From: Escherichia phage vB-Eco-KMB22
Direction: 5' to 3' (one strand)
DNA length: 64,000 nt
Sequence record: OR539217.1
In this document: in pieces, positions 29,547 through 63,033 of the stretch
Position numbering within the stretch: the stretch's first letter is position 1
Layout of the letters: the number at the start of each line of letters is the position of its first letter
The notes under the pieces: generated by a model
What the model saw: only the letters and a program-made list of their open reading frames with translations
Told to the model about the DNA's origin: nothing
The model's database searches: none
Made by a program: the position numbers and the translations under genes

Positions 29547-30957
<1,411 letters not shown>

Positions 30958-32389: not shown

Positions 32390-33977
<1,588 letters not shown>

Positions 33978-58560: not shown

Positions 58561-58765
58561 TTACTGCATGACTGTGATAACTGTCATGATAACACGTTGA
58601 ATGCCGAACGCAAGAAGACCTCCTGCTACGGCTGGAACAACACCTAAACCCGCCAGTAAAATGCTAAAGAAGACCTCCTGCTACGGCTGGAACAACACCT
58701 AAACCCGCCAGTAAAATGCTACCGGATACTAATGCAGCGCTTGTAATACCTATGAATGGACTCAT
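58561..58765 (-). pseudogene. small hydrophobic protein ORF truncated by 55-bp tandem duplication
   Basis: Hand translation: reads MSPFIGITSAALVSGSILLAGLGVVPAVAGGLL then stop at 58664; removing one repeat copy restores a 49-aa ORF ending at 58561. Confidence 0.6.
58612..58721. repeat. perfect 55-bp tandem direct duplication (2 copies)
   Basis: 58612-58666 identical to 58667-58721 base for base. Confidence 0.95.
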
Positions 58766-60090
58766 TTGATTTCCTCTAAATCTTTGGTGTATTCTGTAAC
58801 TACATCAGTAGTTTTCCAATATTCGTTTTCTTCTTTTTTAGCTTTAGCTTCTTCAGCAAGTTTCTTTGCTTCATCAGAAGTCATATGAAAAATATTCATA
58901 CCAACTAGTTTATCAACATAAGAAGAATACATCTCAATTTTAGAAAGTTCTTCGGTCAGTTCTTTACGAGTTTTACCCTGTACAACAATTTCACCTGAAA
59001 TTACTTTCTTAATGAAATGCGCCTTGGCAAAGGCTAAACGAAAAGCTGATTCAGTTTCTTTGATTTTGTTATCAATTCGTTTTTGGACATAAGTTTTACG
59101 AACTTCAACAAAGTCTTTAATTAAATCGACTACGTTATCGTAAACTTGTAGTTTTCCTTTCTCATTAATAACCGTAATATTCTGAGAACGACGCTCAATC
59201 AACCCGAAGTCTTTCATAATTTTTGCATGGCGTTCTTCTTCATTATCGCTCAAAGAATATTCTTTACGGAATTTAACTTTAAAGCCAAAACCATGCTCAC
59301 CACAAGCATCATCCCATGTAATGAAGCCTTTATCTTCAAGTGGGTCTAAGATTTTACTCACATAAGTTTCACGATCATACTTATACGGAATCTCAGTGAT
59401 ATGCATTTGAGTTCGTGAAGTAAACTTATATGTTCCACGAATTTCATATTGCCCATCAATTTCAACGACTTCACCACGAAATTCTGGGAATTCTACCTTC
59501 GGTTTAGTTACTTTCTTTCCTTGAAGAGCTTGCAGTACAGCTTTCTTGACAGAAGAAACACTATGAGGAAGAATGTAAGTTGCATAACCAGTTGCAATAC
59601 CGGAAACGCCATTAAGAAGAACAGTAGGAATAATAGGTAAATAGAAAGCAGGCGGAATGTGTTCTTTATCTTGATGTACCGGAGCATATTCAGTATCTTT
59701 ATATACGTTATAGAAATTTTTACTTACACGAGCAAAAATATAACGACTTGCTGCTGCTTTTTGGACGGTACGAGAACCAAAGTTTCCTTGACCATCTAAC
59801 AGAGGAAAATTATTATTCCAAGTGTTAGCCATCAAAGCACCTGCATCTTGTGCAGAGTTTTCACCATGATGATATCCAAGGTCAGCTACACCACCTGCAA
59901 TAGAAGCAAGTTTGTGAAACTTATCTTTATTTCCTCGTGCCAAATCAAGAGCTCGAGCAATAACAAATCGTTGGACTGGCTTAAATCCGTCAATCATATT
60001 TGGGATAGCACGATTTTCAACCGTGTACATAGCATAAGCCAATGCTTCATTATCAATGATACTTTTTAAATCGCGATTATTCAGTTGCAT
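58762..60090 (-). CDS. 52: DNA topoisomerase II medium subunit gp52
   Basis: 442 aa, position and length. Confidence 0.9.
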   Translation of the reverse strand: MQLNNRDLKSIIDNEALAYAMYTVENRAIPNMIDGFKPVQRFVIARALDLARGNKDKFHKLASIAGGVADLGYHHGENSAQDAGALMANTWNNNFPLLDGQGNFGSRTVQKAAASRYIFARVSKNFYNVYKDTEYAPVHQDKEHIPPAFYLPIIPTVLLNGVSGIATGYATYILPHSVSSVKKAVLQALQGKKVTKPKVEFPEFRGEVVEIDGQYEIRGTYKFTSRTQMHITEIPYKYDRETYVSKILDPLEDKGFITWDDACGEHGFGFKVKFRKEYSLSDNEEERHAKIMKDFGLIERRSQNITVINEKGKLQVYDNVVDLIKDFVEVRKTYVQKRIDNKIKETESAFRLAFAKAHFIKKVISGEIVVQGKTRKELTEELSKIEMYSSYVDKLVGMNIFHMTSDEAKKLAEEAKAKKEENEYWKTTDVVTEYTKDLEEIK

Positions 60091-60094
60091 AAAT

Positions 60095-60235
60095 TTACCA
60101 TACTAGTGAATGTAGTGCCATAATAACATCAGAAATGAAAAGCACGACTTGAATTAATCCGAACATTATTCCGTAATATAACGCTACCAATAAAGTAGCA
60201 AGGGCTAGTGAATAGCCCAAGATTTTCTTAATCAT
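60095..60235 (-). CDS. small membrane protein (52.1 position)
   Basis: 46-aa hydrophobic ORF translated by hand. Confidence 0.5.
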   Translation of the reverse strand: MIKKILGYSLALATLLVALYYGIMFGLIQVVLFISDVIMALHSLVW

Positions 60236-60386
60236 TAGTAGATAACAACACAAATGTTAAATATGCACACATACCCTGGGCTAAAGCTTGTGAAAACACA
60301 CTGCTGGCATCAATACAGATAGTTAAAACACATGCTACTATCCAACAAATAAATGAAATAACTCCTAATAATTTTGCGATATTCAT
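60228..60386 (-). CDS. ac: Ac small membrane protein (acridine sensitivity)
   Basis: 52-aa hydrophobic ORF between stp and 52.1; GAGGAA SD. Confidence 0.6.
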   Translation of the reverse strand: MNIAKLLGVISFICWIVACVLTICIDASSVFSQALAQGMCAYLTFVLLSTND

Positions 60387-60393
60387 ATTTTCC

Positions 60394-60474
60394 TCACTGG
60401 CGTCCGAAGACGCCTTTAGTTTTAAGATTGTTACGATAAAACTGCATCACATGTTCGTTGTGGAAATTACTCAT
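60394..60474 (-). CDS. stp: Stp peptide (activator of host PrrC anticodon nuclease)
   Basis: 26-aa [29 protein letters not shown], matches recalled Stp; start overlaps ndd stop. Confidence 0.8.
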
Positions 60475-60917
60475 TAATATGCCTGCAAAACGAATTTAAA
60501 GTTATCAGCCAACATACGGTTCATTTCTTCAAGTGTTTGATACTCAGAATGATGATTACGAGTAAACGCCAAAGCTAACTGACCTTTACCAAATCCTGTC
60601 GTCAGAGGTTTCATCTTAGAAGCAGGCAGATAAAATACTGTGTATGGAACATTGTTATTTACAATAGTACGCGCAAGTTGAGACCGGCGTTGACGAATAT
60701 GACTTAGAACTGCGCTGAATCCTTGCTTAGAACGCTGATTACCCACATAAAATCGTGCGGATACGCATGAACCATCGAATTCATTTACTAAAAAGTAAAA
60801 TCCAGGTTTAGATAAAATATCTTTATGCGGAGTTCCCAAAAACCACTTACCACCCTTGATTGTACCAATAACAGTAGCGCCTGCGTTGTTCAGATCAGTA
60901 ACAGTCATGTATTTCAT
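60474..60917 (-). CDS. ndd: nucleoid disruption protein Ndd
   Basis: 147 aa, matches recalled Ndd. Confidence 0.85.
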
Positions 60918-60976
60918 TTTAATTTCCTCTAATTATTTTCTACTCCAAGGCCGCATGAATACACGCGGCCATTAAA

Positions 60977-61192
60977 TTAATCGTCGCAGTCGACGCTCAA
61001 TTCCCAGAATTCTTCTACGGTGTAAGTTTCAGTATCATTTTCAATACAGAAACGTTCATTACTATTATTTGCTAAAGTAGCATTAACTGTCGGTTTCTCG
61101 CTAGTGCTCTTAAGAGGTGAAATACGAATTAACTGATCACCATTATCTAAACAGAAAATTTCACCAACTTTTACATCTTTAAAACTTTTCAT
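60977..61192 (-). CDS. hypothetical protein (ndd.x)
   Basis: 71-aa ORF. Confidence 0.5.
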   Translation of the reverse strand: MKSFKDVKVGEIFCLDNGDQLIRISPLKSTSEKPTVNATLANNSNERFCIENDTETYTVEEFWELSVDCDD

Positions 61193-61200
61193 AATTCACC

Positions 61201-61311
61201 TCAAGGAGTATAAAATCCAAATGCAGTTGTTGACCATCCCATCCAATATGGGAAATTTGCGCCAATGTAAAACATAAGAATATAAAACCAAATGTTTAGT
61301 AAATTCATCAT
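61201..61311 (-). CDS. tiny hydrophobic peptide
   Basis: 36-codon ORF, ATGA-coupled to upstream ORF. Confidence 0.4.
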   Translation of the reverse strand: MMNLLNIWFYILMFYIGANFPYWMGWSTTAFGFYTP

Positions 61312-61526
61312 TTTACACCATTCCAAATTGTTTCAACTACGGATTTTAAACCATTTTGATGAATATCCATTCCGACTACCGCCATCAAATAGATTCCAAC
61401 TACAACTGAACCTAAGGCAAAAATCAGCATGAAAATGAATAAAGCCGGAAAAATATTATCGAAAAACCATTCAATAAATGTAAAAGCACTGCGTTTACGC
61501 TTCATATTTTCCTCACATAAATCCAA
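61308..61526 (-). CDS. small membrane protein (ndd.x)
   Basis: 72 aa with TM segment. Confidence 0.5.
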   Translation of the reverse strand: MDLCEENMKRKRSAFTFIEWFFDNIFPALFIFMLIFALGSVVVGIYLMAVVGMDIHQNGLKSVVETIWNGVK

Positions 61527-61626
61527 AGTAAGCGTTTAATACATCAATCATTAAAACGATTGGGAATATACTCAAAACTATTAATATTATAACTACATTC
61601 CATATAGCTTTAATAATCTTTTTCAT
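61513..61626 (-). CDS. tiny membrane peptide
   Basis: 37 aa from ATG with GGAGGAA SD; early promoter 61651-61685 lies inside the longer ORF-track call. Confidence 0.5.
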   Translation of the reverse strand: MKKIIKAIWNVVIILIVLSIFPIVLMIDVLNAYFGFM

Positions 61627-61650
61627 TTTCTGTTCCTCCGTAGTTGATAG

Positions 61651-61685
61651 AGTAATAATACCACGGAAGAACAGTCTTGTAAACA
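61651..61685 (-). promoter_or_regulatory. early promoter (GTTTACA-17-TATTAT)
   Basis: motif. Confidence 0.6.
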
Positions 61686-61869
61686 ACTTTTTTAAAAATA
61701 TTCGTAATAAATGTGAATACCAACTACTACCGCTGAAACCTGTGCAACCCACCACGCGCAAGCAATAAGTACAGAATCCAAAATTTTCATAATAACCTCA
61801 TTACAAAAGTAAATGTTAAACAAATTACTGGAATACTAATTAACCAAATAAAACACCACCATAATGAAC

Positions 61870-62145
61870 TCATAGCTCAATCTCAGCGATTTTCATTTCA
61901 TTACTATTAATAGCCGCTTTAAGACTATCTGAAAGAATTACATTCCAGTGGTCATTCATATGACCATTAATTAAGCGTGTAATTTCTTCGGGAGTTGAAA
62001 AATAAGGCTGATCAGACTCCCAATGCGATAATCCTAAGCGAGTATAAATCATGCCTTCATCATCGCTAGAATATTCAACTGACACAAACTCATCAGTTAT
62101 TTTATGTTTAGCGTAATAAAATTTAAATTTCATTTTATTCTCCAA
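61870..62145 (-). CDS. hypothetical early protein (ndd.x)
   Basis: 91-aa ORF; early promoter 62166-62200. Confidence 0.55.
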   Translation of the reverse strand: MENKMKFKFYYAKHKITDEFVSVEYSSDDEGMIYTRLGLSHWESDQPYFSTPEEITRLINGHMNDHWNVILSDSLKAAINSNEMKIAEIEL

Positions 62146-62165
62146 ATCCGTATCAGTAGTTGATA

Positions 62166-62200
62166 GTTGTATAGTACCACGGTCCTTGTGGTATGTAAAC
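62166..62200 (-). promoter_or_regulatory. early promoter (GTTTACA-17-TACTAT)
   Basis: motif; leader identical to motA promoter leader. Confidence 0.7.
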
Positions 62201-62217
62201 TGTTTTGTGAAATTTTT

Positions 62218-62775
62218 TTAAATGGAAAGATACCATCCGTTGTAGTTGCTTTTTCTTACAACCTTACGAAGGTCTTCTCTGTCACCGATGAACTTCGGAG
62301 TGTACTGGATGACACCTGGATGAATTTCTTTAGTGTTGAATATAATTATACAGTCAGCGACTTGATGATTTAGAATGGGCCCTAAATTTATTCCAGAACC
62401 ATATGGATACTCTCCGCTGCATCCCGTTGTTACCGAAATCCAACGCGAGTCAGTTTGATGTGTTTTGACTTCTACACGAAGCCCGCAATATTTTGGATGC
62501 GCTAAAACATCCCATGCATACGTGTACGGATCATCGACATTTTCTTGGCCTTTATTGACATATCCGCTTAGCCAATCTGCCACAAAAAACTCTGCGTACA
62601 CAGCGATACGGCATCTTTCGATAACTTCTGCTTTATCCTGGTTCGGGTTTTGTTTTAAAGAGTATCTTGCTGTATCAGCAATTTTGACCTTCATTTCACT
62701 AGTCAAGTCACTGTTCGATAGGGTAAATGTCGGAATCTGAAATAGTCTCTGTAAACCCGGATTCGTTTTCTGCAT
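62218..62775 (-). CDS. denB: endonuclease IV
   Basis: 185 aa, matches recalled DenB. Confidence 0.85.
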   Translation of the reverse strand: MQKTNPGLQRLFQIPTFTLSNSDLTSEMKVKIADTARYSLKQNPNQDKAEVIERCRIAVYAEFFVADWLSGYVNKGQENVDDPYTYAWDVLAHPKYCGLRVEVKTHQTDSRWISVTTGCSGEYPYGSGINLGPILNHQVADCIIIFNTKEIHPGVIQYTPKFIGDREDLRKVVRKSNYNGWYLSI

Positions 62776-62807
62776 TTAAACTTTCCTTTATGTCGGAATC
62801 ATAATTT

Positions 62808-62836
62808 CTCTTAAAACAAAAGGGCCGAAGCCCTTA
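62808..62836 (-). terminator. CUUCGG hairpin plus U-run upstream of denB
   Basis: gggccgaagccc with flanking A/T runs. Confidence 0.6.
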
Positions 62837-62838
62837 TT

Positions 62839-63033
62839 TTATTTGAATTGTGCGATTCTTTTCTCTAGACACTCAGCATAAGATTTCATTGAGATGAACT
62901 GCGAAAGTAGCAGTTCTTGCTCAACTGCGTTAACTGTTAGAAACTTTGCGCTTTCTAAAAATTTACTCAGTGCATTAATTTTGAGCATTAATTGATCGTA
63001 TTCTTCTTTTACTCGTGCTTGATAACCTAACAT
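62839..63033 (-). CDS. hypothetical coiled-coil protein
   Basis: 64-aa ORF. Confidence 0.5.
   Translation of the reverse strand: MLGYQARVKEEYDQLMLKINALSKFLESAKFLTVNAVEQELLLSQFISMKSYAECLEKRIAQFK

Follow-up and report, generated by a model that had tools for sequence, protein, structure and literature searches.

We examined the region between gene 52 and denB in a 64,000-nucleotide stretch of Escherichia phage vB-Eco-KMB22 (record OR539217.1; hereafter the window, meaning this whole stretch), where a chain of very small open reading frames (ORFs) around ndd had been predicted at positions 60095-61873. Its sequence identifies the chain as the known, long-annotated T4 early-gene cluster that runs from 52.1 through ac, stp, ndd and ndd.1 to ndd.6, here in a T4-type phage. 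The 2.4-kb stretch around the finding matched 560 phage records, and the best matches listed were T4-type enterobacterial phages, of the genus Tequatrovirus where taxonomy was checked; the closest relative was phage vB_EcoM_Ozark (99.2% over 59900-62300 and 99.8% over the micro-ORF chain itself), and by these matches the window phage is itself a Tequatrovirus. We listed ORFs of at least 20 amino acids (aa) and then re-derived ATG starts, stops, upstream sequences and junctions. All micro-ORFs of the original prediction were found on the minus strand, which carries every gene of the region, and their coordinates and lengths were exact for all but one, a 32-aa ORF placed near 61762 whose true span (61692-61790) starts about 70 nucleotides (nt) below that coordinate. 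Two further ORFs, of 65 aa (61308-61505) and 87 aa (61870-62133), belong to the same chain and had been left off the earlier list.

Read in the direction of transcription, denB (62218-62775, 185 aa) is followed by an 84-nt gap that holds a promoter (62134-62217) and then by ORF X (61870-62133), which encodes an 87-aa soluble protein and is the first chain gene past the denB-proximal early promoter. Two peptides that hydropathy classes as single-transmembrane (TM) come next, encoded by ndd.6 (61787-61873, 28 aa) and ndd.5 (61692-61790, 32 aa); a 65-nt gap holding a second promoter (61627-61691) separates them from ndd.4 (61513-61626), whose 37-aa product is likewise single-TM by hydropathy and has an N-terminal KK..K motif. 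The intact 65-aa gene (61308-61505), which corresponds to T4 'ndd.3' plus 'ndd.2a' and is called ndd.2a/3 here, precedes ndd.2 (61201-61311; 36 aa, aromatic-rich, with one weakly hydrophobic segment) and ndd.1 (60977-61192; 71 aa, acidic and soluble), after which a 59-nt gap (60918-60976) holds a stem-loop. The gene for the nucleoid disruption protein, ndd (60474-60917, 147 aa), is not a micro-ORF, yet it sits in the coupled chain. Downstream of it lie stp (60394-60474; 26 aa, soluble), the acridine-sensitivity gene ac (60228-60386; 52 aa, two hydrophobic helices), 52.1 (60095-60235; 46 aa, very hydrophobic) and topoisomerase gene 52 (58762-60090, 442 aa).

The T4 reference annotation lists 52.1, ac, stp, ndd, ndd.1, ndd.2, ndd.2a, ndd.3, ndd.4, ndd.5 and ndd.6 in this same order between gene 52 and denB, so the original prediction understated what was already on record. 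Compared with the T4 52.1-ndd.6 segment (NC_000866 165209-166996), the window agrees in gene order, strand, lengths, junction types and early-promoter positions, and its peptides are 92-100% identical. Pairwise protein alignments bore out the earlier labels for stp (26/26 residues identical), ac (51/51 T4 residues plus one inserted Thr) and 52.1 (44/46). The peptides that had been left unnamed are T4 ndd.2 (33/36), ndd.4 (36/37), ndd.5 (31/32) and ndd.6 (27/28), at 92-97% identity and in the T4 order between ndd.1 and denB. Ndd.1 matched at 69/71 positions, and Ndd at 139 identical residues with a 4-aa indel. Apart from the inserted Thr and this indel, the window differs from T4 in having the 65-aa gene intact where the reference has 'ndd.3' and 'ndd.2a', in a 37-aa rather than 42-aa Ndd.4, and in the additional 87-aa gene between ndd.6 and denB. 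The cluster is one of T4's clusters of predicted membrane proteins and is known both as a class and gene by gene.

Family searches gave PHROG matches for all ten small products. Stp scored 75.3 bits (cut-off 25) against the Pfam anticodon nuclease activator family PF08133 (Nuclease_act), over positions 1-26 of 26, and matched phrog_6763, while 52.1 scored 80.1 bits (cut-off 27) against DUF7396 and matched phrog_3595; the placement of gp52.1 next to gene 52, here with a 4-nt gap, also occurs in other genera. The 65-aa protein matched phrog_2401 and scored 71.9 bits against DUF7248, its residues 6-63 aligning to positions 4-57 of the 58-position profile. Ac, placed between stp and 52.1, matched phrog_2501 (E = 3.7e-25), Ndd.1 matched phrog_2183 and ORF X matched phrog_2390 (E = 1.5e-46); Ndd.2, Ndd.4, Ndd.5 and Ndd.6 matched phrog_4135, phrog_3098, phrog_5011 and phrog_8851, respectively (E values from 2e-17 to 6e-24). 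The Pfam scan gave no match for Ac, Ndd.1, Ndd.2, Ndd.4, Ndd.5, Ndd.6 or ORF X, and the PHROGs that these matched have no assigned function.

For the two places where the window and the T4 annotation disagree on gene structure, we traced the sequence basis of the difference. The T4 reference lacks one G right past the start of the 65-aa gene (ATGAA-CGT versus ATGAAGCGT in the window), which puts the first 25 codons out of frame, and its annotation has a 26-aa ndd.3 and a 40-aa ndd.2a (T4 locus L001, 4433-4629) in place of 65 aa. A 66-nt probe over the site matched four records at 99% or better, the three listed being the reference-lineage entries X75802, AF158101 and NC_000866; the next-best listed matches carry the extra base (67-nt spans) and include the re-sequenced T4 isolates OZ209023 and OZ209057, T4T and other relatives, and 458 records in all had identities of 95-99%. 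At this place, other genera carry one ORF of 66-71 aa, and because the DUF7248 profile spans the junction at full length, the 65-aa form and not the 40-aa ndd.2a of T4 is the family norm. The comparison thus indicates that a 1-nt deletion has divided a single 65-aa gene into the 'ndd.3' and 'ndd.2a' of the T4 reference, and that 'Ndd.3' is an artefact frame, which agrees with its being a PHROG singleton; the missing base is likely either an error in the reference sequence or a mutation that arose in the laboratory. The 42-aa start of T4 Ndd.4 (MEEQKM...) arises from a C-to-T change found only in T4 that creates an ATG (window 61600-61700; L001 4724-4824); the window, RB3 and KarlGJung have ACG there and use a downstream ATG behind GGAGG, giving the 37-aa form, so the T4 annotation of this start is probably too long.

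The eleven junctions from ORF X down to gene 52 are tightly built, although most are not the ATGA-type overlap that the original prediction had ascribed to most of them. Strict ATGA overlaps occur at three (X/ndd.6, ndd.6/ndd.5 and ndd.2a3/ndd.2), the ndd stop and stp start overlap as TAATG, and the ac stop and 52.1 start overlap by 8 nt. At three others (ndd.4/ndd.2a3, stp/ac and ndd.2/ndd.1) a gap of 7-8 nt places the TGA stop within the GAGG Shine-Dalgarno sequence of the following gene; the end of 52.1 and the start of gene 52 are 4 nt apart, and the remaining two are the long gaps of 59 nt with the stem-loop and 65 nt with the promoter. Every ORF has an ATG start that either follows a GAGG- or GGAG-type Shine-Dalgarno sequence, as in ac (GAGG 8 nt 5′ of the start) and ndd.4 (GGAGG), or overlaps the preceding stop. 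When ATG-initiated ORFs of at least 26 aa were compared with those in 1000 dinucleotide shuffles, their share of the sense strand was 91.8%, whereas the shuffles averaged 30.7% (standard deviation 11.7, maximum 69.4), and seven coupled junctions were observed against a mean of 0.26 (maximum 4). The antisense strand, also considered for genes, was set aside with an ORF coverage of only 20%. The coupled arrangement is thus far beyond chance.

Lack of conservation in related phages, which the original prediction had named as counter-evidence, is not what we found. Thirteen Tequatrovirus loci served for comparison with the window: T4, teqskov, six GenBank phages and five IMG/VR contigs. Over the seven micro-ORFs and the 65-aa gene we counted 105 distinct substitutions, of which 26 lie at first, 10 at second and 69 at third codon positions; 69 are synonymous and 36 non-synonymous, a coding-type pattern. 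Synonymous and non-synonymous changes among the relatives numbered 7 and 1 in ac, 6 and 1 in stp, 21 and 5 in ndd.1, 19 and 7 in the 65-aa gene, and 10 and 4 in ndd.5. The frames are intact in nearly all 13 relatives, and most of the apparent breaks are trivial (a start at the second Met or a different stop codon); real ones occur in one metagenomic contig (L004), where the end of ndd.6 is frameshifted, and in Ec_YwIITB1 (L040), which has a frameshifted ac together with an ndd-stp fusion.

In distant T-even genera, where Ndd itself is 55-65% identical, tblastn found syntenic counterparts of 52.1 (85-91%), Stp (80-100%), Ndd.4 (58%), Ndd.6 (44-52%), Ndd.2 (42-46%) and the 65-aa protein (37-51%). 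ORF X reached about 30% identity in other genera, and Ndd.5 had no tblastn match outside Tequatrovirus. Each of these distant loci has its own chain of hydrophobic ORFs of 25-70 aa with Shine-Dalgarno sequences around ndd, and the patterns of hydrophobic segments and charges are kept across genera. Cross-genus ratios of non-synonymous to synonymous divergence (dN/dS, Nei-Gojobori) were 0.08-0.10 for 52.1, 0-0.19 for stp, 0.16-0.24 for ndd.4 and 0.3-0.7 for ndd.6. Taken together, these patterns indicate that the reading frames are under purifying selection at the protein level.

We weighed this against the possibility that some or all of ndd.2, ndd.4, ndd.5 and ndd.6 are no genes, their frames persisting in an AT-rich spacer kept for promoters, RNA structure and recombination junctions. 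Such a reading could draw on the relaxed ndd.6 ratio, the restriction of ndd.5 to Tequatrovirus in the searches, and the finding that not every micro-ORF annotated in T4 is genuine, ndd.3 being an artefact frame, as well as on the failure of mass spectrometry to detect the T4 products and the lack of a knock-down fitness phenotype, both described below. It fits poorly with substitutions that are mostly third-position and mostly synonymous in frames intact in almost all 13 relatives, with a Shine-Dalgarno sequence or stop overlap at each ORF, and with coverage and coupling above all 1000 shuffles; ndd.4, moreover, keeps its frame and 58% identity at a dS of about 1.4, where synonymous sites are close to saturation. 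We consider it very improbable that some or all of these four are not genes.

Two genes of the chain stand out in their synonymous divergence. Cross-genus dS of 52.1 and stp is 0.17-0.86, versus 1.4-2.5 for the flanking gp52 and ndd (comparisons with L007, L009, L010, L011 and L013), and the gp52.1 protein is 85-91% conserved versus 70-83% for the adjacent essential topoisomerase subunit gp52. Because the dS of 52.1 and stp lies so far under that of gp52 and ndd, it suggests either recent lateral exchange or constraint at the nucleotide level, although estimates from such short ORFs are noisy.

Two promoters of the T4 early type lie in the region on the minus strand, one in the ndd.5/ndd.4 gap (61655-61683; GTTTACA, 17-nt spacer, TG-TATTAT) and one in the denB/ORF X gap (62171-62199; GTTTACA, 17-nt spacer, TG-TACTAT), and transcription most likely starts at these two predicted sigma-70 promoters. 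With a 10/12 match and an extended -10, the first scores best in the region, and it hardly varies among T4, RB3 and KarlGJung; the cassettes that hold them are near-identical, forming a 30-nt repeat (61637-61666 and 62153-62182). In these repeated early-promoter cassettes, and in a gene content that differs among phages at conserved junctions, the block resembles the PeSL (promoter-early stem-loop) cassettes, which mediate modular shuffling in T4-type hyperplastic regions (PMC2839356, PMC4122927) and in which a terminator-like stem-loop immediately precedes the early promoter. It differs in that the terminator scan called no stem-loop directly 5′ of either promoter. A stem-loop in the ndd.1/ndd gap (GGCCGCGUG-UAUU-CAUGCGGCC, 60949-60970, minus strand; 8 bp with one mismatch) was likewise not called by the terminator scan, and because it has no U-run, its role is probably in mRNA stability or processing and not in termination. 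Rfam gave no match in a scan of 59900-62900 at E<=1.

A second RNA hairpin, GGCGUC-UUCG-GACGCC (60399-60414, minus strand), lies within the last seven codons of stp and is followed by the junction GTGAGGAAAATATGAA, which carries the ribosome-binding site of ac (60382-60414 in all, minus strand). The hairpin is kept in all 12 of the stp 3′-end sequence variants among the compared loci (one with a G-U pair), and hairpin plus junction are kept in every stp-bearing locus, whereas the gene that comes next varies: it may be ac or a paralogue resembling Ac, or its place is taken by unrelated hydrophobic ORFs. The same 16-nt junction GTGAGGAAAATATGAA occurs again at 61501-61516 (minus strand), before the 65-aa gene, and the 13-mer TGAGGAAAATATG has two exact copies in the window and five at no more than one mismatch, versus 0.23 expected by chance. 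Lying within coding sequence, the stp hairpin and ribosome-binding-site junction is no PeSL, but it looks like a reusable joint for expression and recombination, a role that may account for the conservation of the dispensable Stp C-terminus.

These cis elements could also be read as the whole purpose of the chain, with the micro-ORFs acting only in cis, as a ribosome relay, as mRNA protection, in the expression of ndd or gene 52 or in the manner of leader peptides, and with the peptide sequences functionless. Tight stop/start coupling throughout, the gap of only 4 nt between 52.1 and gene 52, and the conserved hairpin and ribosome-binding-site junction at stp/ac all accord with it. Selection on the amino acids (dN/dS of 0.08-0.2) and the hydrophobic and charge patterns retained across genera do not, and neither do the phenotypes of Stp and Ac, which act in trans from plasmids (PMC3014915; 10.1101/2025.06.30.662393). 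In the CRISPRi-ART knock-down screen of T4 (PMC11879866 supplement), all genes from 52.1 to denB were scored 'Not Fit' and gene 52 was scored 'Fit'; because guides at the 52.1 start cost no fitness while gene 52 itself does score, gene 52 expression appears independent of 52.1 translation. An exclusively cis-acting role is, in our judgment, scarcely credible.

Gene content at the locus varies among T-even phages. In EPIMRB01, an Ac-like paralogue (MKFV.GIAFFCW...ITGETSVFLQA; L039 2101-2253) takes the place of ac; in Ec_YwIITB1, such a paralogue lies beside the frameshifted ac (L040 2116-2271 and 2282-2439), and the fused ndd and stp form a 183-aa ORF (L040 1557-2108), L039 and L040 coordinates being those of the reverse-complemented locus with ndd on the plus strand. 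In phage ime09, a further membrane ORF, of 57 aa, lies between ndd and stp (L042 973-1146). A family of membrane ORFs of 57-61 aa (M..FF.MGYL...ERLCK.CGV.) occupies the interval between ndd and stp or 52.1 in most T-even genera other than Tequatrovirus (L010 2943-3116, and L014, L021, L024, L029 and L032, just 3′ of ndd) and is absent from the window and T4. ORF X is present in 11 of the 13 Tequatrovirus loci and absent from T4 and RB3.

Automatic annotations of T4-like phages often omit 52.1, stp, ndd.4 or ndd.6 despite intact frames: the teqskov RefSeq entry (L002) lacks 52.1, stp and ndd.6, and from the annotation of EPIMRB01 (L039) 52.1, the Ac-like gene, stp, ndd.4 and ndd.6 are missing. 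From the annotations of L002, L039, L040 and L041, under-annotation of genes below 50 aa appears systematic in T4-like genomes. A very hydrophobic 59-aa ORF in the +1 frame inside gene 52 (59508-59687, minus strand), over the most conserved part of that gene, was considered as a hidden micro-gene and rejected. Of 27 diverged loci, 17 keep this frame open and 10 break it, and the only modest rise in synonymous-codon identity (0.645 vs 0.522) belongs to a wider conserved stretch; the ORF is probably no gene but a side effect of conserved gp52 sequence.

Two members of the chain have known activities or phenotypes, and of these Stp is the well-understood one. Stp binds and inhibits the type Ic restriction enzyme EcoprrI, which frees the associated latent nuclease PrrC to cut tRNA-Lys, and the cut tRNA is healed and sealed by T4 polynucleotide kinase (pseT) and RNA ligase 1 (rnlA) (PMC3014915). 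Its activity resides in the N-terminal 18 residues, with loss-of-function mutations clustered at residues 4-14 and a dispensable C-terminus (PMC3014915). The original prediction had described Stp as a trigger of PrrC counteracted by pseT and rnlA in the window. This relation is borne out, and both genes are located in the window (pseT at 29739-30641, 96% to T4, and rnlA at 32393-33514, 98% to T4, both on the minus strand); the trigger role is correct but understates Stp, which is primarily an inhibitor of type Ic restriction, PrrC activation being the counter-move of the host. Compared with the PF08133 family, the window Stp equals T4 Stp, including the active N-terminal 18 residues, its gene lies directly after ndd, and no difference is detectable by sequence. 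From this identity, it would be expected to inhibit type Ic restriction (EcoprrI, EcoR124I) and to activate PrrC. Ac, which is defined genetically, confers sensitivity to acriflavine on T4 infection and makes infected cells accumulate acridines, its loss gives resistance, and its expression sensitises E. coli (10.1101/2025.06.30.662393, PMC13250531); it has been proposed in a preprint that its two short helices enter the membrane and block AcrAB-TolC (10.1101/2025.06.30.662393; echoed in PMC13250531).

By the best 19-residue Kyte-Doolittle window, 52.1, Ac, Ndd.2a/3, Ndd.4, Ndd.5 and Ndd.6 score 2.2-3.1 and Stp scores -0.85, as a soluble peptide. The earlier description of most of the peptides as single-TM therefore holds insofar as most are TM-like by hydropathy, but Ac and possibly 52.1 look like two-helix hairpins and Stp is not a membrane peptide. 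In the 65-aa protein, an N-terminal KRKR motif is combined with a single long TM segment and a C-terminal tail, GLKSVVE-IWNG, that is conserved; the basic N-termini of Ndd.2a/3 and Ndd.4 are consistent with the positive-inside rule. The labels 'outer membrane' and 'periplasmic' given to these peptides in T4 databases are not credible and are likely old output of localisation predictors. In bacteria, small inner-membrane proteins can regulate transporters, as does E. coli AcrZ (49 aa), which binds AcrB. The window peptides resemble such regulators in size (30-65 aa), in having one or two hydrophobic helices and in the proposed action of Ac on AcrAB-TolC, a functional analogy only; they differ in being phage-encoded, early and in a coupled chain.

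Published T4 data bear on when and whether these genes are expressed. In a dual-omics time course, transcripts of 52.1, ac, stp and ndd.2-ndd.6 were classed as 'early', and Ndd and Ndd.1 were detected as early proteins (PMC9697503 Table S2). The sa-delta-9 deletion, which extends from 52.1 through denB, is viable and abolishes the phage-induced stimulation of phosphatidylglycerol synthesis (PMC6071114). Searching the literature for the names ndd.2-ndd.6 returned only papers on neurodevelopmental disorders, and neither the HIDEN-SEQ preprint nor the CRISPRi-ART main text discusses genes of the block.

We consider it very probable that the region between gene 52 and denB is the accessory early-gene block of T4-type phages, with membrane peptides that would act as modulators of the host envelope. 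In this model, the two early promoters head runs of tightly packed cistrons, where a stop/start overlap or a spacing of at most 8 nt could allow ribosomes ending one peptide to re-initiate on the next. Stp would block EcoprrI and so unmask PrrC, PseT and RnlA would repair the resulting tRNA damage, and Ac would make the infected cell accumulate acridines. The peptides 52.1, Ac, Ndd.2, Ndd.2a/3, Ndd.4, Ndd.5 and Ndd.6 would enter the inner membrane within minutes of infection and serve there as small modulators of host envelope machines, for which Ac acting on AcrAB-TolC is the proposed model case. The phosphatidylglycerol stimulation that is lost in T4 sa-delta-9 probably depends on one of them, and together they would form an exchangeable toolbox whose content differs among phages.

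Several observations weigh against this model. In T4, the proteins 52.1, Ac, Stp and Ndd.2-Ndd.6 went undetected by liquid chromatography-mass spectrometry (Class_P = NA; PMC9697503 Table S2), although this is an expected and weak negative because the peptides are 26-46 aa long, mostly hydrophobic and poor in tryptic sites, and our literature search found no T4 ribosome-profiling study of small proteins. The membrane location of the peptides is a prediction from hydropathy only, with Ndd.2 borderline (best window 1.29), and ndd.6, with the ratio given above, is under weak sequence constraint. Among the peptides beyond Stp, only Ac has a proposed target, AcrAB-TolC, and this proposal comes from a preprint.

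The membrane peptides might instead form an envelope-control set of the phage, with roles in superinfection exclusion or the timing of lysis, as for Imm, Sp and RI, or might counter membrane-based abortive infection. Early expression, the predicted membrane location, a content as variable as that of defence and counter-defence genes, the anti-restriction function of the neighbouring stp and the dispensability of the block on laboratory strains are all compatible with this idea. The Pfam and PHROG scans, however, gave no homology to Imm, Sp, RI or known anti-defence families, and Ac, the sole characterised member, gives a drug-accumulation phenotype; we regard such a role as unlikely. Within the host-envelope modulator model, a more specific version is conceivable, if doubtful: each of 52.1, Ndd.2, Ndd.2a/3 and Ndd.4-6 might specifically inhibit or modulate a host inner-membrane machine of its own, and the genes might be swapped among T-even genera as cassettes at the hairpin and ribosome-binding-site junctions.

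Overall, there is little new in the existence of this chain, a known T4 gene block that was correctly rediscovered from raw sequence. The gap it points to concerns the small products other than Stp and Ac: although they are conserved and under purifying selection, none but Ndd.1 has been detected as a protein, and no function has been assigned to them. If the peptides are indeed modulators of different host inner-membrane machines exchanged as cassettes, the conservation of gp52.1 and its low dS would mark a recently exchanged effector under strong selection. The micro-genes of this block would be worth including in small-protein proteomics and in screens on hosts that are rich in defence systems or mutant in efflux.

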